Assembly: GCA_965227835.1 (NCBI GenBank) | Contig: OZ245768.1 | Coordinates: 150,001-182,000 of the forward strand | Source of the DNA: Candidatus Saccharimonadota bacterium | Lineage (GTDB): Bacteria > Patescibacteriota > Gracilibacteria > BD1-5 > UBA6164 | Reading direction: 5' to 3' | DNA length: 32,000 nucleotides | Part shown: piece after piece, positions 1-23,452 of the stretch | Layout: the number at the start of each line of letters is the position of its first letter | Position numbering within the stretch: the stretch's first letter is position 1 | Program-made: the position numbers and the translations under genes | The notes under the pieces: model-generated | Databases searched by the model: none | What the model saw: only the letters and a program-made list of their open reading frames with translations | Told to the model about the DNA's origin: nothing

Positions 1-2
1 AA

Positions 3-4772: not shown

Positions 4773-4801
4773 AAAAGCCCTGAGCTTTAGCCCAGGGCTT
4801 T
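4773..4801 (-). terminator. Rho-independent terminator of the membrane-protein gene
   Basis: Hairpin gccctgagc/gcccagggc. On the minus strand it is followed by a T-run, 14 nt past the stop at 4815. Confidence 0.6.
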
Positions 4802-4814
4802 TAACTAAAATTTT

Positions 4815-6236
4815 TTATTTTTTTAAATTCTCCATAAATTTTTTTACTTCACTTGCTGCAATATCTTTTGACCCAAGTCAAACAGCTAAAGCAAATGCAA
4901 CTGCTACTGCTCATAAAACTAAAGTGAAAGCTTGTGTTATTATTTCTCAACCTATTCACATTTGTTGTAATCACATAAAAGCTGTTAAAACTATTATAGC
5001 TGTTTTTGCTATATTTATAAGTATCTTTGAATCTGAAGCTGTCCTTATAGCTTTTTCTGCTAGGTTAGCTAAAAATAATCAAAGCCCTAATATAACTATA
5101 CCTACAAGTACATTTGTTGCAAAAAGTATAAACTCATTCACAAGAGCAGCTATAGTCATAAAACCTATTGTACTTGTAGCTTCAACTACTGCTAAAAGTA
5201 TTATGTATATAAATGCTAAATGTCCTATTATTTCAGAAGGTTTCGTGGTTGATTTAACACTTTTTAAACCAATTATTTTTAATACTTTATCAAATCAAGC
5301 TCATGATAATAGCTCAGATATTAGTCTTGATACGAATCTTCATATGAAATATGATATAGTTATTATTATTCATGCTGTGAAAAGAAGAGGAATCATATTT
5401 ATTATTTGTTGTAACATTTCTGTAGCAGGTTCACTTATAACACCTATTTTTAATTTATCCAAAGCTTGTATAGCTACAGGTAATAAAATAAGAACATATG
5501 CTATTGTCCCTGCTAGGTTTGATATTGAGAAGTCATTTAAACCAAATTTTTTACTTGCTTCATCTACATTAAGAGAATTAAGTACACTTACAGTTATTTG
5601 TTTTATTATTTTAGCTATAAATAATCATATTATAAATATTATACTGGCTCCTATTATATTGGGTATATATCAAGTAACACTATCTATTATATTTGTTATT
5701 GGTTTTAAAAGTTCGTTTTGTCCTAACTCTTCAAGTATTTGAGGAAGAAAAAATATTATTACTGCCCAATATGCTATTACTCCTATACTTTCTGATACAT
5801 TAATTCAAGAACTTAACTTTTTGTTTAAATCCATTACCTTTGATCATTTTATTATAGCAATTTTAGCAATACTAGCTAATAACCATGCTATTATAGCTAG
5901 TCATAATGCATTAATTATTTTTGGTATAAAATCATCCAAAATGTCATTTAAAATAGCTATTTCTATGTTTAAATATTCTAATATTCATACTACTCAAGCA
6001 AGTATTATTATAAAATAAAGCCCCTTAGATACTATGTTTCAAATTAGATTCAAATCTATTGATACATCTATCTTTTTAAAGGCTTTTTTCAAAAAGTTAG
6101 CTTTTTTTAATCATCATCATACTAACTCTGAGATTATTTTTGCAATTACGATAGCAACAATTACTCATACTATTATTGTAGCATATCTAATAATCACATC
6201 AAGAGGTAAGCTTATACCTTGCATAAAATTATACAT
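4815..6236 (-). CDS. Polytopic membrane protein with repeated conserved-TM-helix units (mechanosensitive-channel-associated type), 473 aa
   Basis: The minus-strand frame is open from ATG (6236) to TAA (4815-4817) with TGA as sense; every triplet was checked. It shows repeated hydrophobic units of the form G-x-I-P-N-I-I-G-A-x-I-I-F-I-I-G-L-F-I-A-K. The plus-strand ORFs 4924-6264 are its antisense shadows. Confidence 0.7.
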
Positions 6237-6475
6237 AATAAATTTACTTACAAATATAAAATAATTTTTTAGAAAATATTAAAATTTTCAATTTATCCTT
6301 TAATAATGCTTTTTTGCACTCTTGCATTGTATATTTTTTTAAGTTTGTGTAAAAAATAAAGCTATTTACATTTAAGTTTGATTATTTTCTAAATATGAAA
6401 CTAAAAAAACTAGATTTTTTATTTATGCTAAATATACTAAAAAATAATTACTTATATCCTTATTAAAAATTGAAT

Positions 6476-6709
6476 ATGAAAGTAAAAATATGTTTATGAA
6501 ACTCTTGTAAATCAAATTTTTCGCATTATATGATTTCTAGAATTGATAGAGATATAAAAAAATTTGATTTAAAAAATATCGAAATTGAAGAATCTAAGTG
6601 TATGTGAGAATGTAGTAAATGACCTAATGCAAGAATTGATAGAGAGATTATAAATTTCTCTAATGGTTCTAAGATTAGTGAACTTATGTTTAAGAAATTA
6701 AAGAGATAA
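6476..6709 (+). CDS. Small thioredoxin-like [2Fe-2S] ferredoxin-type protein, 77 aa
   Basis: Carries CLGNSC and CMGECSKGPN cysteine motifs (C-x-G-x-C-x-x-G-P-N type). Three of the motif glycines are TGA. Confidence 0.6.
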
Positions 6710-6711
6710 TA

Positions 6712-8328
6712 ATGTTAATTTATAATACTAAAACAAGAAAAAAGGAAATATTTAAGCCTATTTCAAGCAGGGAAGTGAAGGTCTATTTTTGTGGTCCTAC
6801 CCCATATAATTTTGCTCATATATGAAATTTGAAAACATATGTTTTTGAAGATGTGGTTGTAAAGACTTTGAGGTTTTTATGATACAATTTAAAAACTACT
6901 ATGAATATAACTGATATAGATGATAAGACTATTAGAGATAGTCAAAAAATGTTAGAGAGTCTATCTTCTTTCACAAAAAAATATTCCAAAGCTTTTTTGG
7001 AAGATATAGAAAAATTATGAATTAAAAAAGCAGATAATGTGGTTTTTATATCTAGTTTGATACCAGAAATGGTTAGAATGATTCAAACTATGCTCAATAG
7101 AAAAAATGCTTATTTTTGAGATGATTGAAGTATTTATTTTGATGTTTGTAGTTTTAAGAATTACTGAAAATTAGCAAATTTAGATATTTCTTGATTAAAA
7201 AAATCCGTAAGGATAGATAATGATGAGTATGGAAAAGAAGAAGCTTCTGATTTTGCCTTATGGAAAGCTTGGAAAAAAGAAGATGGTGATAATTTTTGGG
7301 AAGCAGAGTTTTTTTTACCAGATGAGTCTGAAAAACCTAACCTCCAGTCCATTCAAACCTTACCCTCAACCCAATGAACTAGCCCTCACCCTCAGCCTCT
7401 CTCCGGGCAAACCTCACCCCTAAACCTCTCCGAGCAAACCTCACCCCTAACCCCTCTCCTTAGAGGAGAGGGGGATAGAAAAGTTGTTATAAAATGAAGA
7501 CCTGGATGGCATATAGAGTGTAGTGCTTGTAATATGAAATATTTTTGAGCTCAGATAGATATACATATGTGAGGTATAGATAACTTATTTCCTCACCACC
7601 AAAATGAAGTTGCTCAAACAGAGAGTTGTACTAAAAAAGAATTTTCAAGATATTGGATTCATTGATGACATCTTAGTGTGGATGGTAAAAAAATGTCTAA
7701 GTCTCTTTGAAATTTTTATACTTTGAAGGATTTGGAGGATAAATTCAAAGATGTAGATAGATCTGTTTTATATAGAGCTATAAGACTTAGCTTTATGAAT
7801 TGAAAATATAGGGATAGTATAGATTTTAGTTTTGATAAACTTAACCAAATGCTTAATACTATTGTTGGACTGGATAATACTTTGAAAAATGTTTTTTACT
7901 ATAAATCTAGTTTGTGAGATGAAAATTCCAAGTCTAGTATTAGTTTTAGAAATAGTATGCAAGATTTCATAATTTCTTATACAAATGAGCTTGAAGATGA
8001 TTTTAATATACCCAATGCTTTGAGTGTTTTTTATAGTTTTGAAAAATTTGTGAATACTTGAATTAGAAAAAATGATTTTTCTTTTCCAGAGGTTAGTTCC
8101 ATTTTGGATATGTTTAAAACATTTAACGAGGTTTTATCTATAATGGATTTTGATATTTTAGATTTAAACAATTTTATTCCTAGTGATATTTCTTCAAAAT
8201 TGGAAAAAAGAAATGATGCTAAGAGAAAAAAGGATTTTGTTTTGGCTGATAGTTTGAGAAATGACATAGAGTCTCAGGGTTACAGAGTTATTGATGATAG
8301 AAATTGAAGTAGAGTTGAAAAATTTTAG
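6712..8328 (+). CDS. cysS: Cysteine--tRNA ligase with ~50-aa in-frame insertion, 538 aa
   Basis: [59 protein letters not shown] and KMSKSLGN are all present. The frame is continuous from ATG 6712 to TAG 8326-8328 with TGA as Gly. Confidence 0.95.
7399..7473 (+). repeat. GC-rich tandem duplication plus perfect hairpin inside cysS
   Basis: The 25-nt core ctctccg(g/a)gcaaacctcacccctaa occurs at 7399-7423 and 7426-7450 (period 27 nt, or 9 codons). It is followed by cccctctcc-ttaga-ggagagggg at 7451-7473. Line 7381-7440 hand-counts to 37/60 GC. Confidence 0.85.
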
Positions 8329-9884
8329 ATTTCAGGAGCTTCTTTTATTGAGGTTTTAATATTTGAGTTATTCAAAGCTTCTTTAAATTCATTGAATAAA
8401 AATCCATTTACAATACTTTCTCTTTCTACAAATTTATCTTTAAATAGTTTTATTATTTTGCTTTCTCCATGAGTGTTTACTTCTGCTATATCTCAACCTG
8501 CATTTCATCCATTTATCCTAATTATTTTAAACACCGTATCTTCTAGACTAGAATTTTCAGGTATTTCACCGAGTCATACTGATTTTATTATTTTTCCTAA
8601 AAATAGTTTTACCTCATTTTCATCAAGGTAGTTGCTGTCAGCTTTTATGTTTATACTTCATATAGATCTTAATATGTCTGATCTTATGTCCCATAATTCT
8701 TCAAGTCCTGTTCTTTCTAATACATTGTAAAAGTTTACTATGTTTTCCATGGCCTCAGGGCTTTTTTGTATTATTGCATATTCTTGTTTATTTATTCAAT
8801 TTATTTTTTCTCAATTTTGAGTTTCTATACTTATATTTCAGTTTTCATATATATTTAATTTGTGGGTTGTGTTTAGAGAATTGTTTGTTTCTTGGTTTTC
8901 GTCATTTAAGTTATATTCTTCATTTGTTACTTCACTATTTCTTTGTTCTTGTATTTGGGTTTTTAATTCAAATCTTTCATAGTTTATTTTTAGCCTTTTA
9001 TTATAATTTGCTAATTTCTTTTTAAGTATATCTAATAGTTCTTTTTTTTGTTGATCCAATGAGGCTTCACCTTCTAATTCTTCTATTAAAAATATTAATT
9101 GATTTTGATTTAGGTCATTGATACTAGTTATTCATTCTATACCTGTATCATAATCAAATAAGAGTTCGTTTTCTTTTATAAATTCAAGAAAAAATTGATT
9201 GTCTACTTCATTATCAATTATTGCATTTGATAAATCTAATTTAGATTCCATGAAATTACTACTTTTTTCTTTAAGTTCCACATGATAATCAATAAATTGA
9301 TTTATAATTCATTCTGAACCTTCCCAAATTTCTGGATTTATGTAATCAACAAGCATGTCTCTAATTTCTCCAATTGTGTATTTTGTATTTGGGTTTAGTA
9401 ATTCATCAATTAATTCTTGATTTATAAGTTCTTGATTTAATTTCTTTGATTCATGTTCTATGTTATATTCTCAATCACATGAAATATTTCTACTTTGTTT
9501 CAATCATTCTATATATCAATATAGTGCTGTTTTTATATCGTTTTTTACTTCATTAAAATTCTTCTCGGATTCAATAACATTATTCTCAAAATAAAGTACT
9601 TTACTAGGACCAGTTATTTCAGGTCTTTTATCTATATTTTTCAATTCATAAAATTCTCTTCTCAAATCTTCCAATTCATTTTTAGTGATTTCACTTTCAC
9701 TTTTTATAGCTTCTTTTATTTTTTCTTTCAAATCTGAATATTCTCTTTCTGCATTTTTATACCTATCTGATCTTGTTGTTGAACCTTGCTCAATTCTAGA
9801 CAATATTAAATTTCACTCCTCAATTAAACTTTGAGTAGATTTTTTTACCTCCTCGTTTGTATTTAAATAGTTTAAGTTTTCCAT
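8325..9884 (-). CDS. Hypothetical acidic, helix-rich protein, 519 aa
   Basis: The minus frame is open from ATG 9884 to TAA (complement of 8325-8327), with many in-frame TGA; every triplet was checked. It merges track ORFs 8838-9059 and 9516-9803. Its stop overlaps the cysS stop by 4 nt. Confidence 0.65.
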
Positions 9885-10028: not shown

Positions 10029-11720
10029 CTAGTTTGAAGAATAAGTTCTAGAAAAAGCCTGTTTTATTTGTTCATCCCAGTCTGATATAGATCCTTGAGG
10101 GTCTACCCAAACTGTTATGTTGTACCTAGGGTCTGTAATTGCTAGCTCTGGAAGTCCTCCTGCTAAATTTCCTTTTTGTGCTAGAGTTACAGCAGTTGAA
10201 AGAAAATAAAATCTTCTTTCTCCTGCAATATCACGAATATGAGGTCTATTTTCAACAACAGATGCTTGACGTCTATTTGATTCATCGACATACTGTTTTG
10301 GTTTTAGACTCTCGGAAGGGTCTTGTTTAGAGTCTGGAGTTAGTATATTACCATACCCAACCCAGTTATATTCTTTTTTTGAACCAGCGACGTCATCACC
10401 AATTGTAGAACATCCTGTAAGACGTTCTCCTTTATTGGAATGATGATAGTAGTATATTTTATCACTACTATCAACCGGTGCAAAAAGTGATACAGATAAA
10501 CCTGAACGAGCTGATATAAAAGGTTCAAGACAAAAATAAGCGAATAAACCTTTTTCTCCACTTTCATTTTCTTCAGATTTATTTAGTTGTTCCACATATT
10601 GCACAAAAGGTTGAGGATTTAGATCCCAAGAAGAATCGGGTATCCTGACATCACCTTCATGTGCTAAACCTGGAAATGGTCCCATAAATCCATTTTGAAA
10701 TCTAAAAGATGTAGCTTCAAATCTATGTACTTTTTGAGGTTTTAAATTTTGTCCTTTCAAAAAGTCATAGTTTTCTATATCTTCAGGGGAAACATATTTT
10801 CCCTCCCCCAAGAAAGTTCTAAGAATACCATCTATCCAATCTCTTTCTTTACATTGTTTGAGGATATAAACTCCCGCAAACTCTATTTTGGGAAAAAAGA
10901 TACCAGACCACTTAGACATTGAAACTACTTGTACGAAATCTCCTTTATCGTCTTTTACATACTTAACTCCTTCGGGAAAATAGCTAAGAAATTTCCAAGG
11001 ATTTAGACGTTTTTTGACAACGTTTAGAGTATTATTCCAGTACAAAAGACCTTCTCCGGAGGGAAAACATACATTTTCTATATCCTCGAAGTTTGGTGAG
11101 GGGCTCTCAGCTGATACTGAAAATATTTGATTTATATCTTGAGTCATTCTTCCCCATCTTTTATAGGGATAAATTTCTAAGTTAAATCTAATATTCCCAT
11201 TATCCATAATTCGATCTGGAATTTGTATAGACTCAGATTCGCTTATCTTTTTTGTTGCCAAGACCATCACAGAGTTCAATGGTTGTGGAGTTACTTTTGT
11301 TGTTAATGGTAGTTCATCTAGTTCTACCCAGTCTACATTTTGGTATTTAAGATAAGAAGAAATATATTGTGTTACACCAAAATATGTATATGGCACAATA
11401 CAAAATAAACCTATAATACCAAATGACCAAGCAGTTTTTTTAAGCTTTACTTTTGAAAGACCAATTGTTATTAGATATATTACTAACAACATAAATACAA
11501 CAAAGAGATACTCTCTAACAACTATAACATACTCATGCCATATAGACCTCAAAAGTATTAGTGTAATAAAAAGGAAAAACATAACTACACGAAAAATTTT
11601 ACTTTTCCATATGCTTTGTAGACCGTTTTTTATACCAGAACAAGTATTTCTTACTAACCAGTATATTGCTCCTTTCTCTTCCTCGTCTACTTTGTTTATG
11701 TCATTGTTTATGTCACTCAT
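10029..11720 (-). CDS. Island gene 6: membrane protein, three N-terminal TM helices plus ~440-aa probably extracytoplasmic domain, 563 aa
   Basis: The track ORF runs to 11747, but the ATG at 11720 (MSDINN) has AAGGAGG 6 nt upstream and gives the same 8-nt overlap style as the other junctions. TM segments are FRVVMFFLFITLILL, YLFVVFMLLVIYLITIGL and AWSFGIIGLFCIVPYTYFGV. TAG stop. Confidence 0.8.
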   Translation of the reverse strand: MSDINNDINKVDEEEKGAIYWLVRNTCSGIKNGLQSIWKSKIFRVVMFFLFITLILLRSIWHEYVIVVREYLFVVFMLLVIYLITIGLSKVKLKKTAWSFGIIGLFCIVPYTYFGVTQYISSYLKYQNVDWVELDELPLTTKVTPQPLNSVMVLATKKISESESIQIPDRIMDNGNIRFNLEIYPYKRWGRMTQDINQIFSVSAESPSPNFEDIENVCFPSGEGLLYWNNTLNVVKKRLNPWKFLSYFPEGVKYVKDDKGDFVQVVSMSKWSGIFFPKIEFAGVYILKQCKERDWIDGILRTFLGEGKYVSPEDIENYDFLKGQNLKPQKVHRFEATSFRFQNGFMGPFPGLAHEGDVRIPDSSWDLNPQPFVQYVEQLNKSEENESGEKGLFAYFCLEPFISARSGLSVSLFAPVDSSDKIYYYHHSNKGERLTGCSTIGDDVAGSKKEYNWVGYGNILTPDSKQDPSESLKPKQYVDESNRRQASVVENRPHIRDIAGERRFYFLSTAVTLAQKGNLAGGLPELAITDPRYNITVWVDPQGSISDWDEQIKQAFSRTYSSN

Positions 11721-12348
11721 TTTTTCCTCCTTTGCCGAAACTTTCAAGTTTATCTATATAGTACTTATCATTTGGTTCTTTGTCTTGAGTTGGGTATGCG
11801 TTATTTTTGTCCTCAAATTCCTGTTTTTTATTTTCACTATCTTTTTTAGTGAGAATGCTTTTTTTAATTGCATCTCCAGCGTCACCTGATTTTTCTATTA
11901 TGGTTTGTTTTGCTCTATCTCCAGCTTTTTGTATCTCATCTTTTAAATTTATTTTGCCTGTCTGGATATCATCACTTCTGTCCAGACCCCATTTAAAAGA
12001 ATCAACTAATGTGACAGCTAGAGGTGTAAATATAAAACCTATCCATATAAAGAAGTGTAGCAATACATATAATAGTAAATCTACATATAAAGGCATTGCA
12101 TCAGGAATCCAAAAAGTTATAAACTCAATTGTTGCTGCGAAAGGTGTTGCATTTATAAGTTTACGCTTAATTGTTTGCCCATACACAAAACCTTTATTAT
12201 CTTCCATTGTAATTCGATTTTTAGGAGAGTTTATAAGGTTATGAAACCATATATAAAACTTTCTAAAAAGACCTTTTTTTTGATCTTTTACTCCTATGAA
12301 CATACCAATTACAATAGAAGTAATAGTCCATCCAATTATTTCATTCAT
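11713..12348 (-). CDS. Island gene 5: small membrane protein with charged Gly/Asp/Lys-rich C-terminal tail, 211 aa
   Basis: AGGAG SD. Hydrophobic segments are IIGWTITSIVIGMFIGV and PLYVDLLLYVLLHFFIWIGFIFTPLAVTLV, followed by a hydrophilic tail (GDRAKQTIIEKSGDAGDAIKK...). It ends at TGA (11713-15) in an ATGAGTGA overlap with gene 6. Confidence 0.8.
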   Translation of the reverse strand: MNEIIGWTITSIVIGMFIGVKDQKKGLFRKFYIWFHNLINSPKNRITMEDNKGFVYGQTIKRKLINATPFAATIEFITFWIPDAMPLYVDLLLYVLLHFFIWIGFIFTPLAVTLVDSFKWGLDRSDDIQTGKINLKDEIQKAGDRAKQTIIEKSGDAGDAIKKSILTKKDSENKKQEFEDKNNAYPTQDKEPNDKYYIDKLESFGKGGKNE

Positions 12349-13603
12349 AATTAACTCCTTTGTAGTGATTCATAATTCTCCAAATTACCCATTTCCTTTT
12401 TGATTTAGACCAAGTAAAATATTGTTTGTAAAACTTTTCTTTGTTAAATCTATACAGTTGTATAACTTTTTCAGGAAATAGGAATGTTAGAAGTATATTT
12501 ACAGCTTGCTTAAATCCTGGGTTAACCTTTGTTGGACGAAGTAGTAAACCTCTAAGTTCTTTAGATAATTCATTTACTTCTTTTCCCATTCTAAGCGACT
12601 GAATTAGTTTCTCAATTTCGAAATAAACCTCTGGAATATCTTTTTCATACTCTATAAGGTATGATTTTTTCTGAGTACTTGGTATTTCTGAATATTCTAG
12701 ATTTTCAGGGTTTTTGTTACAAACCACATCAGCTAGTATATCATCTTTCATTCTTTCCAATTCATTTAAATTAGAACTGTAGAATCCTAAGTCCAAAGTA
12801 AGAATTCCAAATTTTTCTAGCTTTTCTACTAGATTATCTTCATCTATACTCATAACTAGTAGGTCTTTATAAGGACTTTCTAGTATTTGATTATCTTGTT
12901 TTTCTACTCTAATCATCAAGGTTTTGTCTTCGCTTCCAAAGTCACGAAATACAAATGTCCCTCCATAATTTCTAGTGAAAAACGATGAAGCTTCATCAAA
13001 AAATATGGGATGAAGTAATATATTCCTTCGTCTTAAATCACCGTGTTGTTCAGAGCTTTCTATTAGCTTTTTTCTGACTTCGGGATCTTGCCACATATCT
13101 TCACTTTTTTCGAAATCAGCTACTAATTTTTTTTGTTGTCTTGCTATTTCTTCTATCTTGTTTGGTGTTGAAGGAATAACTTGGTAATAACCAACCATTA
13201 ACAGATCAAATGGAGTTGTGAATCTAGAAATACCATTTTCTATATCCAAGCATACTCCTGACATGGTTGTTATATCCATTAAAGGTTTTTTAAGTTCATG
13301 ATATACCCTTTCTATAAGAAAGGAATCAAAAGAATAATGACGAAAATAAAGAGATGCTTTGGCCTGTTCTACACTTAGTATAATACCAACTGTATTACTA
13401 GGACCGTGAGTCAGATACATTTCATCATCTTTTTCCTTTGATATATCAGGTGACCATCCTAATTTATCTATACTAAAACTTTTAAGCTTAGTTGTAGGTA
13501 AACCTAGATGTTTAAGGCATTGGTTATACCTTTCAACCATTTCTTCGGTGTTTACATCGAAGAGATTCGCTCCTATGAGCTCTGCTTTTTTTAAATGTTT
13601 CAT
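12341..13603 (-). CDS. Island gene 4: hypothetical protein, 420 aa
   Basis: Uninterrupted standard-code ORF with AGGAG 7 nt upstream. It ends at TGA (12341-43) in an ATGAATGA overlap with gene 5. No motif recognised. Confidence 0.8.
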   Translation of the reverse strand: MKHLKKAELIGANLFDVNTEEMVERYNQCLKHLGLPTTKLKSFSIDKLGWSPDISKEKDDEMYLTHGPSNTVGIILSVEQAKASLYFRHYSFDSFLIERVYHELKKPLMDITTMSGVCLDIENGISRFTTPFDLLMVGYYQVIPSTPNKIEEIARQQKKLVADFEKSEDMWQDPEVRKKLIESSEQHGDLRRRNILLHPIFFDEASSFFTRNYGGTFVFRDFGSEDKTLMIRVEKQDNQILESPYKDLLVMSIDEDNLVEKLEKFGILTLDLGFYSSNLNELERMKDDILADVVCNKNPENLEYSEIPSTQKKSYLIEYEKDIPEVYFEIEKLIQSLRMGKEVNELSKELRGLLLRPTKVNPGFKQAVNILLTFLFPEKVIQLYRFNKEKFYKQYFTWSKSKRKWVIWRIMNHYKGVNYE

Positions 13604-13628
13604 TTAAATCTCCTAGTTTGTGAATTTG

Positions 13629-13663
13629 GAGTAAGGAGGGATTTATCCCTCCTTACTCTTTTT
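13629..13663. other. 13-bp perfect GC-rich hairpin between island genes 3 and 4
   Basis: gagtaaggaggga-ttta-tccctccttactc. The T-run follows on the plus strand only, so this is not a classical terminator for the minus-strand operon. Confidence 0.7.
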
Positions 13664-13689
13664 GCAATACCAGAGAAATATATGACTCT

Positions 13690-15621
13690 TTAAGAGGTTC
13701 TTCTTCTAGCCTCTGCTTGAATCCTCATATGATCTATAGTTTGTTCAACCTTTCGTTCAAAATCTTTGTTAGATATTTGAGCTAGGTTGTCAAAATAAAA
13801 TACAGCTTCTTCAAGATATATGTCCACAAAGGACTTCCCTTGAAGGCTAGATCTTATCAAATCTATAATCATTGATTTCTTTTCATCATAATCTTTTTTG
13901 AAAAAGATTAGAGGATCATTGAGCCATTCATCTGGGAAGTCAAAGTCAAAGATTCTAGTCTTGACAGCTGACTGTATATTTCTTTTATCACGAGATGTGT
14001 ATATGAATTTACTTGCTATTTGTGTATCAAGATAGGCAAAAAATTCGGGAGAGTTTTCCTCGTGCTTTTTCCTAGCTTTTTCCAAAATTTCAGCTATAAG
14101 CTCTACTTTAGATGTAGATTTTCTTTCATACTCTTCTTTAATTTTTTCAGTTAAAGATTGAGCTGACATATACTTGTAGCTTTTTGGAGTAGAAAAATCA
14201 GTAAATCCAGGTATAAGTTTTTCAATAGGTTTAATCAAACCTATATAATCTTGATCGAGAAAGTCTTCTTCTGTCTTAGCTCCAGCCATATGAGTACGAC
14301 CTTGCACACGACTTAAAACGGCTTTATCAATTTTTTCTGGAAGATTTGTATATAGGTTTATTAAGTTATTTCCTCTATCTATTGCATATGCTCCTTCTGT
14401 CATTCTCAAAAAAACTCCAACGACTTCTGAAACACCTGCACTTACACCTTGTGATGATCTATCTTGTAGATTATTTTCGGCATCATCTATGGGTGCAAAT
14501 ATGATATGCTTAGGATCATTTAGTATGGGATTGAACCATGCTATAGCTCTCTCTGCACTACCACCTTGATATGTTGAAACAATATTATCAGGGAAGGGGT
14601 GAAATAAGAAAGGTATACCTAGCTCTTTACAACGATCACTTAGTTCAGATGCAATTGCTGCTATTTCCATACTCTTACCAGTTCCTGGAGGACCATATAC
14701 TAGTTTTGTCCTAAAAAAACCACCTAGATCTTTCAAGGGATTTCTCTGTGTTGTAGGATCGTAGCACATAAGCCCCATAATACTTCTTTTAGCCGAATGT
14801 TTTGACTCTACATTTCCTACTATATCACCCCATTCTACTCGGTTAAACTCTACATGGCTTGTATGTCCGGGAAGACTAAATTCAAAACCCTGTATTGAAA
14901 ACTCACTATCTTCAAGTTTATATCCCGAAGATTTAAATATTTCAATATATTTAAATGCATTTTCTTTTGCTTTAATTTCGTCTATTATAGCTTGAAAATA
15001 CAATAGAGTCATTTTTAGAAAAGTTAGTTCATCATGTACCTTACCAGATTTTTCTAAGTAAGATCCATAGTAGAACAAAACACATTTACGAGCCATAGAA
15101 GAATTAACTAAACTCAATTCGGGAATTCCTTCAAATTCCATATGTATTGACTCTAGTTCATTATCCTTGTAGTTGGATAGTTCATGTACTACATAATATG
15201 CAGATACAAAAGCCATTATAGCTGCTGAAGTTGTAGCTTTCTCCCTAAATTCAGATTGCCTTTGTTGAGATAATCCTCTTTCTTTTTGCATCACATCTAG
15301 ATTAGATGCTTTATCAAAAAGTTCAGATATTTTGGAACCAAGCATAAAAGCTTCACGGACAGTTAAGTAAGCTTTGTTAACTCCTTCTGTCATTGCAAAA
15401 CCTTTTTTGCTTATATTGATTGCAAAGTTGGCAATTGAAATGGTTTCTTCTTTACCACCTGTCATTACTGAATGAGCAACATCTAAATTACTACTACTTG
15501 TGTTAGCAAATGAACTTTTTGCTGACTTCCAATCAGTTTTTTTCATGAAACCATCAACAATTCTTGAAAATTCTTTGAGGGATTCATGATCAACTTTATA
15601 CAAATTAGATTTTTCAGACAT
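13690..15621 (-). CDS. Island gene 3: classical AAA ATPase (Vps4/katanin/spastin-like core) with ~290-aa helical N-domain, 643 aa
   Basis: Walker A is LVYGPPGTGKS (14671-14694) and the Walker B region is IIFAPIDDAE (14476-14505). STYQGGSAERAIAWF resembles SKYxGESEKLVRxLF. TNLPEKIDKAVLSRVQGR resembles the ATNxPxxLDxAxxRRF second region of homology. TAA stop. Confidence 0.85.
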   Translation of the reverse strand: MSEKSNLYKVDHESLKEFSRIVDGFMKKTDWKSAKSSFANTSSSNLDVAHSVMTGGKEETISIANFAINISKKGFAMTEGVNKAYLTVREAFMLGSKISELFDKASNLDVMQKERGLSQQRQSEFREKATTSAAIMAFVSAYYVVHELSNYKDNELESIHMEFEGIPELSLVNSSMARKCVLFYYGSYLEKSGKVHDELTFLKMTLLYFQAIIDEIKAKENAFKYIEIFKSSGYKLEDSEFSIQGFEFSLPGHTSHVEFNRVEWGDIVGNVESKHSAKRSIMGLMCYDPTTQRNPLKDLGGFFRTKLVYGPPGTGKSMEIAAIASELSDRCKELGIPFLFHPFPDNIVSTYQGGSAERAIAWFNPILNDPKHIIFAPIDDAENNLQDRSSQGVSAGVSEVVGVFLRMTEGAYAIDRGNNLINLYTNLPEKIDKAVLSRVQGRTHMAGAKTEEDFLDQDYIGLIKPIEKLIPGFTDFSTPKSYKYMSAQSLTEKIKEEYERKSTSKVELIAEILEKARKKHEENSPEFFAYLDTQIASKFIYTSRDKRNIQSAVKTRIFDFDFPDEWLNDPLIFFKKDYDEKKSMIIDLIRSSLQGKSFVDIYLEEAVFYFDNLAQISNKDFERKVEQTIDHMRIQAEARRRTS

Positions 15622-16684
15622 AGTTTAAGTTTCCTTCTTTGTCAAATGAAAATATTCTTGATTTGTCAAAAATATCTCCTGCTTGTTGATGAATTTCATA
15701 TGGTAAAATTACAATAGATTCTCCATTTGAAATGCCTCTACTGTATAATTCAGTATCATATTCGGGAACATGGAAAATTTCTCTTTTTTGTTCTCCTCTA
15801 AAAAATGAGTTACTTATTACCTGTTTTGCGGAGAATACATGTTCATGTCTCATAAGTATTATGAACCTCCTACCTGTATCTCCTAAAGATAAAAGAGAAT
15901 TTATTTCATCATTAGAATGAGAACTAAAACCTTCTGCATAAAAAGGACCAATAGATATTCTTTTGATGATTTTTGGGTGAACTTTTCTTAACTCTTCGTC
16001 AATTGATACGGCAACTATATTTAGATTTGGTGCCCTTGTACCATTTGATTTTACGGTTTTAAAAAACTCTTGCATTGCCTCTTCAGACTCATGAAAGACT
16101 TCATCGTATGATGTCTCAAAAACCATAATATATATATAAGGGATGTTAGTTGAATAATCAAAAGTTGCCCAATAATACATATATTCTTTATCATTATTTA
16201 GTCTTATCAAATTTCCTGGAGAAAATAAATGAAACTGTTCTTTAGAAAATAACATATCTAAAAATGTCCTTTCAGACATCTTTTTGAGTAGATCTATTGG
16301 ATCCTCGTTATTCTCAAAAATAGAGTCTATTATTTTTCTCTTGATTGTTAGTTGTGGTAGTAATCCTTTTATTTTAGATTCACCTTCAGTCATATCTGTT
16401 TCAAGAGATGAGAATTCATAGTGAGAAGGAAATCCTGAGTCACAAGAGTTAATTTTTAACTCTTTATCACTATATAGGTATTTCATCCTGAGACATTGCA
16501 TTGAATTCAAAAATCTTTTCAGATAATTCCTAACTATTTCCTCTTCTTCGTTTTCACTCACAGATGTTTTTTTGTAAATTTTCAGTAATGTTTCAAAAGA
16601 GACACCAATTTTTGCAAAATATCTTTCAAATTCATCTCCTTGTAGAGGTAAATTTTCTAAGTTATCACTAATTTGTGTATTCAT
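15614..16684 (-). CDS. Island gene 2: hypothetical protein, 356 aa
   Basis: Uninterrupted standard-code ORF with a GAGG-type SD. It ends at TGA (15614-16), overlapping the next ATG by 8 nt (ATGTCTGA). No motif recognised. Confidence 0.8.
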   Translation of the reverse strand: MNTQISDNLENLPLQGDEFERYFAKIGVSFETLLKIYKKTSVSENEEEEIVRNYLKRFLNSMQCLRMKYLYSDKELKINSCDSGFPSHYEFSSLETDMTEGESKIKGLLPQLTIKRKIIDSIFENNEDPIDLLKKMSERTFLDMLFSKEQFHLFSPGNLIRLNNDKEYMYYWATFDYSTNIPYIYIMVFETSYDEVFHESEEAMQEFFKTVKSNGTRAPNLNIVAVSIDEELRKVHPKIIKRISIGPFYAEGFSSHSNDEINSLLSLGDTGRRFIILMRHEHVFSAKQVISNSFFRGEQKREIFHVPEYDTELYSRGISNGESIVILPYEIHQQAGDIFDKSRIFSFDKEGNLNYV

Positions 16685-16705
16685 AATTTTAATCCTCTAT
16701 TATTG

Positions 16706-16738
16706 TGAGAAAAAGAGAGGGACACTAGGCCCCTCTCT
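16706..16738 (-). terminator. Intra-operon terminator/attenuator-like hairpin after island gene 1
   Basis: The minus strand reads agagaggg-gcctagtgt-ccctctct followed by TTTTT. It lies between the stop at 16772 and the next ATG at 16684. Confidence 0.55.
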
Positions 16739-16771
16739 GTTGTTTTTTGTGATTGAAGCTATTTTCATCAT

Positions 16772-18052
16772 CTAGGATTGTTCAGCCCAATGAGAAAACT
16801 GGCTTTCAGTAGGGTCTATTCCATATTTTGATGTCATTTTCTCTACCATATCTTTTATATTAGAATCAGCTTTTGAAATATGCTGAGTAAGAGCACTTTG
16901 AGTTTCTTGCATTTTGCGAAGACGATCTGGATGCGCTCCAATTTTATCTGCCATTATCTTATCAGAAGCAACTGTAGTTTGTGCCATATATTTAGCATTT
17001 TTATCATCTACTTCTGCTCCTAAATCATCAAGTTTTTTAGCAATTTCTTGATCCGAAGATGCTTTCATTGCTTCTAACCTTGATTTGAATGTAATGACTC
17101 GTTCTTCGGTATCAGATTCAAGAGTTTTAATCCAAATTAACTGATTGTTACGGAGTTTTTTCTGAGCTGCCTCGTGAATTTCCAACTCTTTAACAAACTT
17201 TTCTTTGGACTGAAATACTCCCAATGCTACATCTCTAGTACCTTTTGCATCTTCAAGCTTTGATTTTAAGTCTGATATTTCTTTCTCTTGAGCTGTATAC
17301 TCTGGACTACCATTAGGCATACCATTGAGGGTTTGTTCAGCATCATATAGATTGTTTTCTATATCTGATACATCATCCTCAGCATTTTTAAGTATTACTG
17401 CTTGTCTTTCTTTTTCAGCAAAAGCTTCTGCTTTTCTTGCTTCTACAGCTTTGACTTGCTTATCTATTTCTTCCTTACGATCTTTCATTATAGATATTGT
17501 CTTAGCAACACGATTTTGAAAATCTTGCAGGGAATCTTCCATAGAAGCAGATAGCAATCTTTGCCGCATAAGTCTGTTTGCTTCAACTTTTGCTTGATTA
17601 AGTTTTTCTTTTGACATTTCCAAGTTAGCTTCAGCTTCCTCGATTCTGCTTTTTTTGAAAACCCAAGAGTTTTTTGCATCTTCCAGTAATTGTTCAGCTT
17701 TAGCTAATTCAGCTTTAGCACTATTAATTAACCGTTGTTCTTCAGGGGTTAATTGAGTTAGTTGTTCATAAGATCCACCTAATTGCTCAATTATTATGTT
17801 TAGACCAAATACTGCCTCAGCTAAATCTTCTTCTTCTTTAACTACACTTTTTCGTAGTTCATCCATTCTTGTTTCAAGAATTTCTGTAACTCTATCTCTT
17901 TCTTGATCATTCTCGATTTTTGAGGCTTTTTCAAGTTCAAGTTGAGTTTGTTCCATTTCAGCAAGTATATTACTTTCTCTGACTTTTTGCATATGTTGTT
18001 CAGAGCTTTGAAGTAATTCCTGCATTTGAGAGGTTTTTTGCATATCAGTCAT
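16772..18052 (-). CDS. Island gene 1: long alpha-helical coiled-coil protein, 426 aa
   Basis: Uninterrupted standard-code ORF with AAGGAG 8 nt upstream of the ATG and a TAG stop. The sequence is E/K/Q/A-rich with heptad-like periodicity throughout. No enzymatic motif and no TM segment. Confidence 0.85.
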   Translation of the reverse strand: MTDMQKTSQMQELLQSSEQHMQKVRESNILAEMEQTQLELEKASKIENDQERDRVTEILETRMDELRKSVVKEEEDLAEAVFGLNIIIEQLGGSYEQLTQLTPEEQRLINSAKAELAKAEQLLEDAKNSWVFKKSRIEEAEANLEMSKEKLNQAKVEANRLMRQRLLSASMEDSLQDFQNRVAKTISIMKDRKEEIDKQVKAVEARKAEAFAEKERQAVILKNAEDDVSDIENNLYDAEQTLNGMPNGSPEYTAQEKEISDLKSKLEDAKGTRDVALGVFQSKEKFVKELEIHEAAQKKLRNNQLIWIKTLESDTEERVITFKSRLEAMKASSDQEIAKKLDDLGAEVDDKNAKYMAQTTVASDKIMADKIGAHPDRLRKMQETQSALTQHISKADSNIKDMVEKMTSKYGIDPTESQFSHWAEQS

Positions 18053-18117
18053 AATACTTCTCCTTTTGACTATATATTTTCGGGTTATTTTAAAGAACTC
18101 ATTATTCTATATCTATA

Positions 18118-18148
18118 TATTTAGATAATTTAAAAAAATATCTAAATA
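18118..18148. promoter_or_regulatory. 10-bp perfect inverted repeat upstream of the island operon (candidate operator)
   Basis: tatttagata (18118-27) and tatctaaata (18139-48) are separated by 11 nt, 66-96 nt upstream of the gene 1 ATG. Confidence 0.35.
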
Positions 18149-18284
18149 CTAATATATAAAGAATAACTTAATATCTAATTTACAATTCAGTCAATATAAG
18201 TCAAGTTTTTTTTGCTTTTTTTTGTTTTTTTATTATAAAATAGAAAAATTTTCAGCTATATTTCTTATATTAAAGGGAAAAAAT

Positions 18285-18327
18285 AAAACTATTTAATATT
18301 AACAAAAACTTAATATTAAATAGTTTT
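18285..18327 (-). terminator. Terminator of grxB
   Basis: An 18-bp perfect stem aaaactatttaatattaa / ttaatattaaatagtttt with loop caaaaac. A T-rich tract follows on the minus strand. Confidence 0.7.
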
Positions 18328-18352
18328 TTTATAAACTTCCACAATTTTTTTC

Positions 18353-19003
18353 TTAAAATGCTCTATCACTATACAAATCAACATTTGATTTTCTAGATAT
18401 TTTTTCTAAATAACTTTTAACTTTTGGTGGGAAATTTAGGTTTTTTACACAAGTTAGACTACGAAGTATAGGGAATAGACATATGTCTTCGTAGGTGTAT
18501 GTATTTTTTGCAATAAAATTTTCTTGTGTTTCAAGTTCTTCCAAATATTTCTCCATTTTTTTGATTAGTTGTGGTGTTTCTTGTAAACGAGTTTCAAAAT
18601 TTCATATAAACATTTCTTTTTTGTTTTTGAAGTATTCTATGTCTTTTTGTGTTTTAAATTCTTCTAATCACATTTTTATAAATCTTGGTATTACTAATTG
18701 ATAGGTAGTTGCTCATACACTATTTAACCAAGTTTGAATTTCTTCCTGTTCTTCTTTTTCAAGGATTTTGTCTCCATAGTTTTCATCTAAATATTCTACT
18801 ATATCAAGACTTTCTATCATATATTTTTTGTCTTCATACTCCAAAATTGGTACTAGTTTTTTTCATACTAGGTCATAGTGAGATTTTTCATCTGCATTTT
18901 GTATTATTATGCTTTCATATGGTATGTTTTTTAGTCCGAGTATCATTCTTACTCTTATGCAATATGGGCAATGATCGTAGTGGTAGAGTTTTAGTTGTGT
19001 CAT
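18353..19003 (-). CDS. grxB: Glutaredoxin 2, 216 aa
   Basis: LKLYHYDHCPYCIRVRMILGLKNIP, LVGKKLVPIL and LFPILRSLT are collinear with E. coli Grx2 (KLYIYDHCPYCLKARMIFGLKNIP, MVGQKQVPIL, LFPLLRNLT). Open from ATG 19003 with TGA as Gly (checked). Confidence 0.9.
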
Positions 19004-19105
19004 AGTTTTTTGGGGTTATTTTTTAATGCGGGTAATTAAATTTTTATTTTGGAGATTAATTTGTATTATATGAAAAATTATTTTATTTTCTAATTTTAAA
19101 GTAGT

Positions 19106-22100
19106 ATGGAAACACAAAGTAAATCCTTCTCTAGTTTTACAAACCTGTATGAATTAAGTAAGACTTTAAGATTTGAGTTGAATCCAGTGGGAGAGACTCA
19201 AAAATTACTTGATGAAAATCAAGTGTTTCTCACTGATAAAATAAGACAAAAAAAATATGAAGAAATAAAACCTTTTTTAGATGAATTTCATGGTGATTTT
19301 ATAAAATTTTGTCTTTGAGATTTAAGTTTGGATTTTCAAGATTATAAGGAATCTTTGAATAAATATCAAAAAGATAAAAAAAGTAAGGAATGAGAAAAGA
19401 GAAAACAAATTTCAGAAAAGAATTTAAGAGAAAGTATAAGAGAGAAATTTGATTCAAAAGTTATAGAATTTTTAGAAACTTTTTGAAAAGTTGAGATTTT
19501 TAGCTGAAAAAAAGAAAAAATAAAAGTAGTCCTTGAAAATATCTGAGAAATTGAATTTTCTAAGAATAATCATGAATTTCTTTTTGAAATTTGAATTTTT
19601 GATTTAATGAAAAAGAAGTTTGAGTGAAAATGAGATATTTATGTTACAAATAAAGAAACTTGAGAAATCTATAAAAATAAAAAAACTTGAAAAGATATAA
19701 CTATTTTTGATGATTGGAATGGTTGGCTAGGTTATCTTACAAAATTTTTTAAAACAAGAAAGAACTTATATAAATCTGACACCTCAACGGCTTTAGCTAC
19801 AAGAATAATAGATCAAAATTTGAAAAAGTATTGTAATAATTTAGATATTTATAAAAAATTATTAGAAAGAGAAGAATTAAAAAATAGGTTTAAAATCTTA
19901 GAAGAAGATTTTTGAATAAATTTGGAGGATTTTTTTAGTTTGGGAAAATATAATGGTTGTATATTACAAAGTGATATACAAAAATATAATGATATTATTT
20001 GATGAAAGGTTGTTGATAAGAATAAAAAAATTCCATGAATAAATGAACATATAAATAAATATAGGCAAGACTCTTGAGAAAAATTATCATTTTTAGAAAA
20101 ACTTGATAAACAAATTTTAGCTTGATGAAAAGATAGTTTCATAGAACAGATAAAAGATGAAGAAGATTTTAAAAATATTTTAAGTGATTTCTATAATGAT
20201 TCTGTAAAAAAGGTAGAAATTTTGACTCAGATTTTTGAAAATTTGAAAAATTATAATGAAGAAGATTATAAAACTATATATTTCTCAAAAGAAGCATTTA
20301 ATACTCTTTCTCATAAATTTACAGATCAAGTTTTAGTTTTTGAAAAATTAGTTTTTGAAGAGTTGTTACAATATAAATTAGTTGAAAAGAAGCATTTTGA
20401 TAAAAAAGAGGAAAAATATAAATTTCCTGATTTTATAGCATTATACTACATAAAAAAATGATTAGAAAAATATAGTAGTGAAGATTTATTCTATAAACTA
20501 AGGTATTATGAAAATGAGATAATAGAAAAAAATAGTGAAAATATTTGGAATAAATTTTGTAGTATTTTAAGCTATGAGTTTAAAGCTTTAATTTCAAATA
20601 AAATTATAAATCAAAATGGAGAAGAGGTAGAAATTTGATTTGATATTTCAAAAGATAAATTAGAAAAGATTTTAGATAATTTTTCACTTTGAGAAAAAAA
20701 TAATGGAGCAATAAAAGATTTTGCAGATATAGCGAGGAATATTTATCAAATGTGAAAGTATTTTGCCTTAGAGAAAAAAAGAGAATGGAATCCTAACGAT
20801 TTTTATACCCTGAATAGGGATTTTTATTCTGAATGAATAGAAAATAAATCTGGATATGGAGATTTCTATAATGAGGCTTATGAACAAATCATAGTTCCTT
20901 ATAATTTGATGAGGAATTTTATTGCTAAAAAACCTTGGGAGGATAGTAAGAAGTGGAAATTGAATTTTGAAAATTCAAGTTTACTCAAGGGTTGGGATAA
21001 AGAATTTGAAAGTTATTGAGCTTATATTTTTGAAAAAGAATGACTTTATTATCTATGACTTATAAATGGAACAAAGCTCAATAAAGAAGAAATTGAAAAG
21101 TTATATATTCTAAACTCTCAAAATATAGCTAAAAGGTTTGTGTATGATTTTCAAAAACCAGATAATAAAAATACACCTAGATTATTTATTAGATCAAAAT
21201 GAGATAGTTTCGCTCCAGCAGTAGAAGAACTTAATTTGCCAATAAATGATATCATTGATATTTATGATAATGAACTTTACAAGACTGATAAAAATAATCC
21301 AAATACACACAGGGAAAGTTTAGAAAAACTTATTGATTATTTCAAATTATGATTTTCAAAACATAAATCTTACAAACATTTTAATTTTGTTTGGAAAGAA
21401 AGTAGTGAATATAAAAATATTGCTGATTTTTATAGGGATGTAGAAAAATCATGCTATAAACCATATTGGGAAGATATAAATTTTGATGAATTAAAAAATC
21501 TTACAAAAGAGAAAAGAGTGTATTTATTTCAAATTTATAATAAAAATTTTGAACTAGATAAAAGTATAGCTCCTGAAAATTATATTTTTAAATGAAATGG
21601 GAGAGATAATGTTCATACAATGTATTTTAAGTGAGTATTTTCAAAGTATAATATAGAAAATATTAGCTGAGTGAATATAAAACTAAGTTGATGATGAGAA
21701 ATATTTTTTAGACCAAGAGCGATTGATGAAGAAATTGATGTGAAAAGAAAAACAAAAAGAGATGTTATTAAAAATAAAAGATATACTCAAGAAAAAATTT
21801 TTTTACATTTTCCAATTCAAGTAAATTTCAAAGAAAATAAAGCTTTGAGTTTTAATAATTATGTAAATAATTTTTTAGCAAATAATCCTAACATAAATAT
21901 TATTTGAATAGATAGATGAGAAAAGCATTTGGCTTACTATTCTGTTATAAATAGGAAGCAAGAAATTATTGAAAGTGGAAGTCTAAATTATATTTATCAG
22001 AAAGATAAAGATTGAAATATTATTAAAAAATCAGAAAAAGAAATAAAAGAAAAAAGAAATAGTGAGTGAAAAATCATTGACTATGAATTAGTTGAAACTT

Positions 22101-23239
22101 GAAAGATGTTAGATTATGAAGATTATAAGATTTTGCTTGATTATAAGGAGAAAAAAAGAAAATTGCAAAGACAATCTTGGAAAGAAGTGGAACAAATAAA
22201 AGATTTAAAAAAATGATATATTTCAGCAGTAGTAAGAAAAATAGCAGATTTGATTATTGAACATAATGCAATAGTTGTCTTTGAAGATTTGAATATGAGG
22301 TTTAAACAAATAAGATGATGAATTGAAAAAAGTACCTACCAACAATTGGAAAAAGCTTTGATAGATAAATTGAATTTTTTAGTAAATAAATGAAAGAAAA
22401 ATCCAGAAGAAGCTGGGAATTTATTAAAGGCTTTTCAATTAACAGCTCCAGTATGAACTTTTAAAGATATGTGAAAACAAACTTGAATTATATTTTATAC
22501 ACAGGCAAGTTATACTTCAAAAATTGATCCAGTAACAGGTTGGAGACCGAATTTATATATTAAAAAACAAAAATCTGAAATTAATAAATCTAGTATTCTA
22601 AAATTTGATTCTATTGTTTGGAATAGTGAGAAACATATTTTTGAAATCACGTATGATCTAGAAAAATTTAAATCAGAAAATACAAAAAAACAAAATGATA
22701 AAAAAGAAGAAAAATTAAATAAAACGAAGTGGACTTTATCAACTTGAGTAGAAAGGTATAAATGGAATAGATATCTCAATAATAACAAATGATGATATGA
22801 ATATTTTGCTGATTTAAGTCATAACTTTAAAGAACATTTTGAAAATTATTGAATAAATATTTTTTGAAATATTTTAGATCAAATTGAAAAATTAGGAGAA
22901 AAATGAAATGAGAAATTTTTTAGTGGATTTTTAGATTTATTTAAACTTGTTTGTCAGATTAGAAATACAAATAAAGATGAAAAATGAAACGAAAATGATT
23001 TTATTTTGTCTCCTGTATACCCATTTTTTGACAGTAGAAAAGAAAATAATATTTGAGTAAAAAATTGAGATGATAATTGAGCTTATAATATTGCAAGAAA
23101 ATGAATAATTATTTTAGAAAAACTTTGAGATTGGAAAAAAGAAAATGATGTAAAAATTAAAAACTGAGAAAAAGAAATATATCCAGATTTATTTGTCTCA
23201 AATATTGCTTGGGATAATTTTACTCAAAATAATAGATAA
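19106..23239 (+). CDS. cas12a: Cas12a (Cpf1), type V-A effector, 1377 aa
   Basis: The frame was checked codon by codon and has no TAA/TAG until 23237-23239. My hand count gives ~58 in-frame TGA. N-terminus FTNLYELSKTLRFELNPVG; then LYLFQIYNKNF; RuvC-I IIGIDRGEKHLAYYSV; RuvC-II AIVVFEDLNMRFK; QTGIIFYTQASYTSKIDPVTGW; RuvC-III/Nuc DFILSPV...GDDNGAYNIARKG. Confidence 0.95.
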
Positions 23240-23242
23240 ACC

Positions 23243-23452
23243 ATGTTTAACTGAAAAGCAAAAATAGTAAATTGAAATTTTCTAACAAGAAAAGATTTTC
23301 ACCATATTTTCACAAGACCAGAAAATATATTGTCTTGGTATGATAAGAAAAAATTTAGAATTATAGCAAATAGAAAAGTAAGGAGATCAAAATATAACTT
23401 TTCCAATTGAGAATACAAGAAAATCTGAGAAGTTTCTTGGGAGATTATATAA
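23243..23452 (+). CDS. Hypothetical 69-aa protein immediately downstream of cas12a
   Basis: The ATG lies 4 nt after the cas12a stop. Open with 4 in-frame TGA, ending at TAA. No motif recognised. Confidence 0.35.

Follow-up and report, generated by a model that had tools for sequence, protein, structure and literature searches.

What is the six-gene block that stands between native genes in a genome of Candidatus Saccharimonadota bacterium, where did it come from, and what could its products do together? The window analysed here is a stretch of 32,000 nucleotides (contig OZ245768.1, positions 150,001 to 182,000), and all coordinates refer to it. The minus-strand interval 10029-18052 holds six intact, collinear open reading frames (ORFs), called g1 to g6 in transcription order, and long ORFs in the standard genetic code are confined to this interval within the window. 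It is one intact six-gene operon with the following features.

18053-18352, minus strand: AT-rich upstream intergenic region, presumed to hold the promoter, at the junction with the native gene grxB
16772-18052, minus strand: g1, 426 aa, protein helical throughout and built as a long bundle; flexible linker, and a conserved YGIDP motif at the C-terminus
16738-16714, minus strand: terminator- or attenuator-like hairpin between g1 and g2, with a 10-bp stem, 6 G-C pairs and a 5-nt loop, followed by TTTTTCTC
15614-16684, minus strand: g2, 356 aa, soluble protein matching no family; ends with TGA in ATGTCTGA, overlapping g3
13690-15621, minus strand: g3, 643 aa, classical AAA ATPase with an N-domain (1-250) and a C-domain (450-643)
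13629-13658, minus strand: hairpin in the g3-g4 spacer with perfect 14-nt arms (GAGTAAGGAGGGAT/ATCCCTCCTTACTC) and no T-run
12341-13603, minus strand: g4, 420 aa, DUF6638 (PF20343) protein; ends with TGA in ATGAATGA, overlapping g5
11713-12348, minus strand: g5, 211 aa, membrane protein; ends with TGA in ATGAGTGA, overlapping g6
10029-11720, minus strand: g6, about 563 aa from the likely ATG at 11720; three transmembrane helices and a putative external domain of about 440 aa
10012-9981, minus strand: intrinsic-terminator-like hairpin at the operon end, with a perfect 14-15-bp stem followed by TTTTTAT

The mechanical ORF of g6 reaches a TTG at 11747 (572 aa), and the likely start is the ATG at 11720. 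Three junctions (g2/g3, g4/g5 and g5/g6) are 8-nt overlaps of the form ATGNNTGA. The other two carry spacers, one of 87 nt between g1 and g2, which contains the hairpin and the T-run, and one of 86 nt between g3 and g4, where the hairpin may serve as an element of RNA processing or stability. The hairpin at the operon end is stronger than that between g1 and g2. Promoter-like hexamers are no commoner in the upstream region (18053-18352) than in shuffled sequence. An earlier sequence-only reading had already recognised the six ORFs with their positions and sizes and an attenuator-like hairpin after g1, all of which were reproduced here. Its idea that g1 is made in excess gains some support, because similar hairpins with a T-run also follow g1 in several Patescibacteria loci (L003, L007, L009 and L067).

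The sequence-only reading did not mention that the block differs from its flanks in genetic code and composition. The flanking genes (1-9884 and 18353-32000) can be read open only with TGA as a sense codon. Ten of them contain 207 in-frame TGA codons against 80 GGN codons, cas12a has 58 TGA codons by itself, and TGA stands at invariant glycines in the K-T-G motif of the penicillin-binding protein, in the HxGG and KMSKS-LG regions of cysteinyl-tRNA synthetase (CysRS) and in the photolyase motifs. Because TGA occupies these universally conserved glycine positions at such a ratio to GGN, the sequence of the flanks identifies the host as reading code 25, in which TGA encodes glycine. This is the code of Gracilibacteria and Absconditabacteria. 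In contrast, the six genes have 0 in-frame TGA in 2628 sense codons, together with 130 GGN codons, and TGA is the stop of three of the six (g2, g4 and g5). The GC content is 0.29-0.35 in the block versus 0.22-0.29 in the flanks.

The closest relatives of the block genes share 46-64% identity and lie on standard-code contigs with a GC content of 37-40%, with the same TGA stops and overlaps and the same gene order (L083-L085); one close relative locus is labelled Gammaproteobacteria. Relatives of the host were found by a metagenome scan anchored on cysS (CysRS 52-63% identical). They keep the upstream f360-pbp-cysS synteny, and g1-g5 are absent within 10 kb downstream. A metagenome scan anchored on grxB recovered no relatives. 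Given the foreign composition and codon usage and the absence of the genes from the same site in host relatives, the block is a horizontally acquired standard-code island in a code-25 genome. No direct repeats, integrase, attachment-site (att) repeats or tRNA were found at its borders, and the sole tRNA of the window (tRNA-Phe, 4520-4594) is some 5 kb away from it. With neither integrase nor transposase, att repeats or phage genes, the block does not belong to the mobile elements or prophages.

Since TGA does not terminate translation under code 25, the three TGA stops are read through in this host, adding 3 (g2), 26 (g4) and 38 (g5) C-terminal residues, with loss of the three ATGNNTGA junctions for termination and reinitiation. 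A database record lists the exact g4 product with its read-through tail, 446 aa in all, on a contig of 1,489,121 bp. Standard-code DNA that persists in a host with TGA as glycine is also known from the standard-code phages of code-25 Candidate Phyla Radiation bacteria, which largely avoid TGA stops (PMC10746230). The block differs from those phages in using TGA for three of its six stops and in having neither phage genes nor phage homologues. This use of TGA stops points to a cellular standard-code organism as the donor rather than a code-neutral mobile element, and the relatives hint at a lineage of 37-40% GC that may be gammaproteobacterial. A viral origin was rejected: tblastn with g3, g4 and g6 against 50,697 phage genomes gave no match, nor were IMG/VR loci or PHROG families matched.

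A second TGA-free block, standard-code in style, was observed downstream of cysS in a related code-25 genome (L104, metagenome contig Ga0256840_1000569, 12032-18893). Here a homologue of g6 (E 3e-77), without g1-g5, follows genes for an MscS-like channel and three membrane proteins, and the block has 0 TGA against 78 GGN codons and TGA stops in ATGA overlaps. Its GC content (0.23) equals that of the host, yet TGA-glycine codons are still absent despite this complete amelioration towards AT.

To find relatives of the operon, a DUF6638 alignment was scanned against one genome per GTDB species (185,579 species), which gave 324 stretches, and 80 loci were fetched. Relatives therefore occur in about 324 of the 185,579 species, and the fetched loci span at least 7 phyla. 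The carriers include many Flavobacteriaceae (Winogradskyella, Psychroserpens, Polaribacter, Aquimarina and others), Chitinophagales and other Bacteroidota, the Patescibacteria groups Buchanan-, Morani-, Falkow-, Pace- and Saccharibacteria, and further Desulfonema magnum, Opitutaceae, Verrucomicrobiales, Trueperaceae and Pseudobdellovibrionaceae. A tblastn search against plasmids added Vibrio megaplasmids of about 0.9 Mb and replicons of Sinorhizobium, Rhizobium and Shinella. When the window proteins were compared with the locus ORFs by phmmer, the order g1-g2-g3-g4-(g5)-g6 on one strand was found in nearly all of the 80 loci across many phyla, which bears out the conserved synteny that the sequence-only reading had made a test of its proposal. 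Typical E values across loci were about 1e-150 for g3, about 1e-80 for g6 and 1e-20 to 1e-98 for g1. All-against-all clustering placed g4 in 81 loci, g3 in 80, g1 and g2 in 77, g6 in 72 and g5 in 68, where the g5 homologues hold the same position, and no seventh universally linked gene was found in the fetched loci; by phmmer, g2 is a conserved partner in 78 loci. Vibrio, Sinorhizobium, Desulfonema and Trueperaceae carry g1-g4 without g5 and g6. Since several lineages have only these four genes, the soluble g1-g4 are the core of the cluster, and g5 with g6 is a frequent membrane module. Run with HMMER over 1.84 billion proteins, the DUF6638 profile matched 530 cluster representatives; the best 150 of the 530 are all single-domain, and full-length members have about 420 aa. 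The DUF6638 family is thus rare yet widespread.

In Flavobacteriaceae the operon has constant housekeeping neighbours (ABC-F, pirin and others) in some 30-37 loci from many genera, and these shared flanks indicate a long vertical residence. In 28 Flavobacteriaceae loci a Nudix hydrolase gene is placed between g3 and g4 (for example L017, 9269-9898), and it may be a lineage-specific accessory component. The Sinorhizobium meliloti locus (L091, 6057-7802 and 9291-10514) has g1-g4 only. An endonuclease-domain gene and an ISRm16 transposase split its g3 from g4, and a DUF2333 gene follows g4 directly, in the position held by g5 and g6 in others; DUF2333 was considered as a g6 relative and rejected, having no detectable relation. 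An apparent g1-g2 fusion in L018 was an artefact of an ORF running through a masked N stretch. Single loci have other neighbours. A Band_7/SPFH gene lies directly downstream of the operon in L172 (10799-11668). L174 has DnaK/DnaJ upstream (1-2287) and a cluster of TelA, DUF4178, DUF2617, DUF350 and a spermine/polyamine-synthase-like gene downstream (12147-19166). A complete gsp type II secretion operon (L088, 1-9792) precedes the operon of a close relative.

The cluster is undescribed as a system and fits no known kind. No publication found in the literature search mentions DUF6638/PF20343 or describes the cluster, and the proteins have no PADLOC, NCBIfam or PHROG assignment beyond generic AAA matches, in agreement with the sequence-only reading, which did not recognise the gene set. 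What can be said of its activity starts from g3. This protein scores 45.9 bits against Pfam AAA PF00004 (cutoff 21.2; E 1e-11) and has the Walker A, sensor-1 and second-region-of-homology (SRH) residues, and thus belongs to the classical AAA family. Walker A GPPGTGK(S), sensor-1 N425, SRH S436-R437, R441 and the pore-loop-1 aromatic motif STY/FQGG are invariant or nearly so in 27 homologues, and Walker B is an invariant but atypical D378-D379-A-E381 (D-D-x-E) in the same 27. By phmmer against the PDB, the top matches are Afg2, Cdc48-D2 and VAT (E 3e-8 to 3e-6), followed by PCH2, Msp1, spastin and Vps4 (1e-5 to 1e-3). The earlier assignment to the classical AAA ATPases is therefore upheld, with the Vps4/katanin/spastin clade as one candidate among others for the finer placement. 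Profiles of the N-domain (about 250 aa) and the C-domain (about 190 aa) found no relatives among PDB sequences.

The AlphaFold2 model of g1 (62-sequence alignment) is moderately confident (predicted local distance difference test score, pLDDT, 74.7) and all-helical by DSSP, as the sequence-only reading had expected. Helices are predicted at 48-97, 102-126, 132-167, 171-242 and 249-356, the latter two very long, followed by a low-confidence linker (343-391) and a terminal helix. Y409-G410-I411-D412-P413 is near-invariant among the homologues. Pfam searches with g1 and 27 members gave no match for g1, and its profile against the PDB returned coiled-coil noise; two g1 homologues have weak Pfam matches to SipB and HBL. 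The best Foldseek matches in the PDB are F-BAR domains and the ClyA-family tripartite toxins, all non-significant (E >= 7.8e-3, template modelling (TM) score 0.2-0.4, 6-14% identity). The protein has no long hydrophobic head or signal peptide and is mildly hydrophobic only at 77-93.

The sequence-only reading had called g2 and g4 soluble proteins without a recognisable motif. This holds for g2, for which Pfam searches (including its homologues) and PDB profile searches were negative. It does not hold for g4, which belongs to DUF6638 (PF20343) with 130.9 bits (cutoff 27; E 8e-38) over residues 12-414 of 420, and whose homologues are named 'DUF6638 family protein' in RefSeq. Profiles of g4 and g6 matched no PDB chain, and hhalign found no internal paralogy between g2 and g4 or between g2 and the g3 N-domain.

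Both membrane proteins were as the sequence-only reading had described them, g5 small and g6 with three transmembrane helices and a large domain that it took to be external. g5 has 2-3 hydrophobic transmembrane helices (4-20, about 65-89 and 91-107), a K/R-rich cytoplasmic loop and a charged C-terminal tail. g6 has a cytoplasmic amphipathic helix, transmembrane helices at 50-66, 81-97 and 109-125, and then a beta-rich domain of about 440 aa. The K-rich loop at 98-105 argues that this domain faces outward. In g6 the segment SFRFQxGFxxPxPGxHxGDxRIPD is almost invariant. The AlphaFold2 model of g6 (pLDDT 90.2; predicted TM score, pTM, 0.86) had no Foldseek neighbour in the PDB (best E 5.7e-3, TM score at most 0.27), and g6 is confidently predicted to be a new fold. 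The only significant structural neighbour is a viral protein of 588 aa in BFVD (A0A6G5YLZ4; E 7e-16, TM score 0.55, 11% identity), and no source virus was found for this match.

In archaea and eukaryotes, ESCRT and related membrane processes depend on classical AAA unfoldases that have helical substrates of their own. By analogy, the cluster is tentatively read as an envelope-associated machine for scaffold turnover or remodelling, in which an AAA unfoldase would act on a g1 scaffold; this is the reading we prefer, held at somewhat less than even confidence. We infer a mode analogous to that of ESCRT-III/Vps4 or PspA and homologous to neither. g3, with intact Walker A, arginine fingers and aromatic pore loop, would be a hexameric classical AAA protein translocase, and the long helical-bundle protein g1 would be its substrate, as the sole universally co-inherited non-enzymatic candidate, encoded next to the promoter and with a disordered linker and a conserved motif. 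Being promoter-proximal and partly insulated by the hairpin, g1 is probably made in excess, and its flexible linker with YGIDP could be the handle for the ATPase. g2 would be coupled to g3, and g4 (DUF6638) to g5 and g6, with g2 and g4 as adaptors; the 8-nt overlaps suggest two such subcomplexes, an ATPase-adaptor pair and a DUF6638-membrane complex. g5 and g6 would anchor the machine at the cytoplasmic membrane, with the new-fold domain presented to the outside. Overall, ATP would be spent on assembling, taking apart or extracting a g1 scaffold at the membrane, for maintenance or remodelling of the envelope. Envelope-type neighbours of single loci fit this anecdotally (SPFH/Band_7; the TelA-DUF350 cluster with DnaK/J; MscS beside the g6 homologue).

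Several points weigh against such a machine. Band_7, TelA, DUF350 and MscS are not recurrent neighbours across the 80 genome loci. The g1 model is of moderate confidence and its Foldseek matches are all non-significant, no detectable sequence homology links the partner proteins to membranes or to g3, and hydrolysis by g3 is assumed given its unusual D-D-x-E Walker B. A strictly membrane-centred model is weakened since g5 and g6 are dispensable in several lineages, and the patchy distribution, prone to horizontal gene transfer, would also fit a conflict system.

As a defence, anti-phage or by abortive infection, the cluster would use its AAA protein to detect or reshape a phage component, and membrane damage or sealing would fall to g1, g5 and g6. 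In favour of this, the spread of the cluster is patchy (about 324 of 185,579 species, in many phyla), horizontal transfer is clear and here crosses a genetic-code boundary, and copies lie on the Vibrio megaplasmids of about 0.9 Mb. Pairs of an AAA ATPase and a membrane protein occur in defence systems, with weak generic matches here to IetA and mad8, and 1 kb separates the operon from cas12a, with a PemK toxin gene close by. The sequence-only reading had built a defence-island argument on this location. However, the type V-A CRISPR locus beside the operon is native code-25 DNA and the operon is a foreign insert, so that the adjacency is a single event with no evidence of a functional link. In other genomes the flanks are heterogeneous or housekeeping: among 150 flanking proteins from 30 diverse loci there was no recurrent defence family, no complete system and no family recurring more than three times, which gives no sign of residence in defence islands, though no formal genome-wide enrichment statistic was computed. 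Most of the few PADLOC matches were generic (ABC ATPase, OmpA, RNase T), apart from a single methyltransferase and a single homing endonuclease. The vertical stability between housekeeping genes in Flavobacteriaceae is likewise untypical of such islands. The six proteins themselves have no nuclease, protease, NADase or other effector domain and match none of the 5027 PADLOC-DB 2.0 models beyond generic P-loop or coiled-coil similarity (E 8e-4 to 5e-3). Defence is thus disfavoured and considered unlikely. It is a little less probable still that the cluster is a machine for export, insertion or extraction, where g3 would unfold and thread g1 or another substrate to or through g5/g6, with g1 acting on membranes as a ClyA/BAR-like effector or translocator. 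The aromatic pore loop of g3 is typical of threading AAA proteins (Msp1, Cdc48, Vps4), g4, g5 and g6 are translationally coupled, one close relative stands after a complete type II secretion operon, and the weak structural neighbours of g1 include tripartite alpha-pore-forming toxins (AhlB/C, SmhB, MakA, YaxA), to which the SipB and HBL matches of the two homologues can be added. Every similarity of g1 is non-significant, however, and g1 lacks the long hydrophobic head or signal peptide; g6, with three transmembrane helices, has no channel-like fold, and g5/g6 are absent in several g1-g4 lineages. F-BAR domains and ClyA-family toxins are membrane-binding or membrane-entering bundles of long antiparallel helices; g1 resembles them at the non-significant E values, TM scores and identities given above and lacks a hydrophobic head domain.

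A truly homologous bacterial ESCRT-III/Vps4 or PspA-type system is largely refuted and very improbable. A helical protein does stand beside a single-ring classical AAA ATPase with an aromatic pore loop, and CdvC is the best NCBIfam match of g3 (E 2e-7). Its 30 bits are far below the cutoff of 650 bits, however, and neither g1, its 27 homologues nor g3 has a PspA_IM30, Snf7 or MIT match in Pfam. The MIT domain that the sequence-only reading had proposed to look for on g3 was found neither by Pfam nor by the N-domain profile, which returned nothing from the PDB at the sequence level. Homology of g1 to PspA, ESCRT-III or TelA, which the same reading had proposed to test, was rejected by sequence and by searches with the AlphaFold2 fold, whose top 50 Foldseek matches include no PspA, Vipp1 or CHMP/ESCRT-III protein. 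What survives is a plausible analogy of helical scaffold, AAA unfoldase and membrane anchors. As with ESCRT-III/Vps4 (CdvB/CdvC), membrane proteins are in the same operon, and the flexible linker with a short conserved C-terminal motif would follow the same logic as the MIM-MIT handle. In contrast to the ESCRT proteins, g1 has about 430 aa in a long 3-4-helix bundle, twice the length of an ESCRT-III protein, and the four conserved partners g2, DUF6638, g5 and g6 have no ESCRT counterpart. PspA/Vipp1 systems are alike in the proposed envelope-stress scaffold with an ATPase and in the occasional TelA/DUF350/polyamine-synthase and SPFH neighbours, and differ in their PspA_IM30, PspB/C, PspF and Toastrack domains, which are missing here; no PspA_IM30, PspB/C, PspF or Lia partner was found by Pfam in the six proteins and the g1 and g2 homologues, which places the cluster outside the Psp systems. 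The published contexts of PspA with AAA proteins (TPR-6TM, double-AAA and ABC/OmpA; PMC11237479) are different gene sets from the DUF6638-AAA cluster. The Msp1/ATAD1, Cdc48/VAT and FtsH-HflK/C machines include the best sequence relatives of the g3 core (Msp1, Cdc48, VAT), make hexameric threading at the membrane plausible, and find an echo in the one locus with a Band_7/SPFH gene directly downstream; g3 differs from them in having no transmembrane anchor, protease domain or Cdc48 N-domain, in its unique N- and C-domains and in the D-D-x-E Walker B. Equally improbable is an artefact, with the block joined in by chimeric assembly or contamination, or a passenger that has lost its function and is decaying. 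The code usage and GC content of the block are unlike both flanks, neither mobility genes nor att repeats account for the insertion, and read-through of three stops could impair the proteins. Yet both flanks within the window are code-25 DNA and the gene is on a 1.49-Mb contig, so that a chimera would need two precise false joins, and a related code-25 genome has a second TGA-free block, which includes a homologue of g6. A decaying passenger would hardly agree with six intact ORFs (2628 codons) and the preservation of all g3 catalytic motifs.

The envelope-remodelling reading can be extended to a bolder form, possible but rather doubtful, that the DUF6638-AAA cluster is a new class of bacterial machine for membrane remodelling or scaffold turnover, in which a BAR/ESCRT-like g1 polymer would be recycled by g3 as its dedicated unfoldase and wired to the envelope by g6, of an origin independent of ESCRT-III/PspA and mobile across the code boundary yet intact. 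If true, bacteria would have a cell-biological machine new to science that follows the ESCRT logic with unrelated partners, and functions would be assigned to at least five orphan families (DUF6638, g1, g2, g5 and the new-fold g6), whose order is conserved from Patescibacteria to Flavobacteriaceae, Verrucomicrobiota, Desulfobacterota and Proteobacteria. Direct testing is possible in culturable carriers (Winogradskyella, Psychroserpens, Sinorhizobium meliloti, Vibrio parahaemolyticus megaplasmid strains and Desulfonema magnum). The locus is also a natural case of an intact standard-code operon in a genome with TGA as glycine, with obligatory read-through of three stops and lost translational coupling, and bears on the strength of the 'genetic firewall' of recoded genomes.

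The neighbours grxB, cas12a and PemK/MazF, named in the sequence-only reading, were confirmed by code-25 translation. The flanking features are as follows.

18353-19003: GrxB, by code-25 translation
19106-23239: Cas12a, by code-25 translation
23876-24217: PemK/MazF-like toxin gene between cas12a and cas4, no antitoxin identified
Same CRISPR locus: Cas4 and Cas1, by code-25 translation
26454-28603: CRISPR array with about 34 repeats, period about 62 nt, repeat end AATTTCTACTTTTGTAGAT typical of type V-A

Type V-A is the usual CRISPR type in Gracilibacteria and Absconditabacteria, and V-A variants with unannotated ORFs inside the cas operon occur in these lineages (PMC10746230). On the g6 side, the island is bordered by a gene for a 519-aa acidic, repeat-like protein without a Pfam family (8325-9884, minus strand), and no homologues of it were seen beside cysS in related contigs. 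Within cysS, an in-frame insert of about 150 nt (7334-7490) is GC-rich (>50%), ends in the palindrome CCCCTCTCCTTAGAGGAGAGGGG and resembles a small palindromic mobile repeat within an essential gene.

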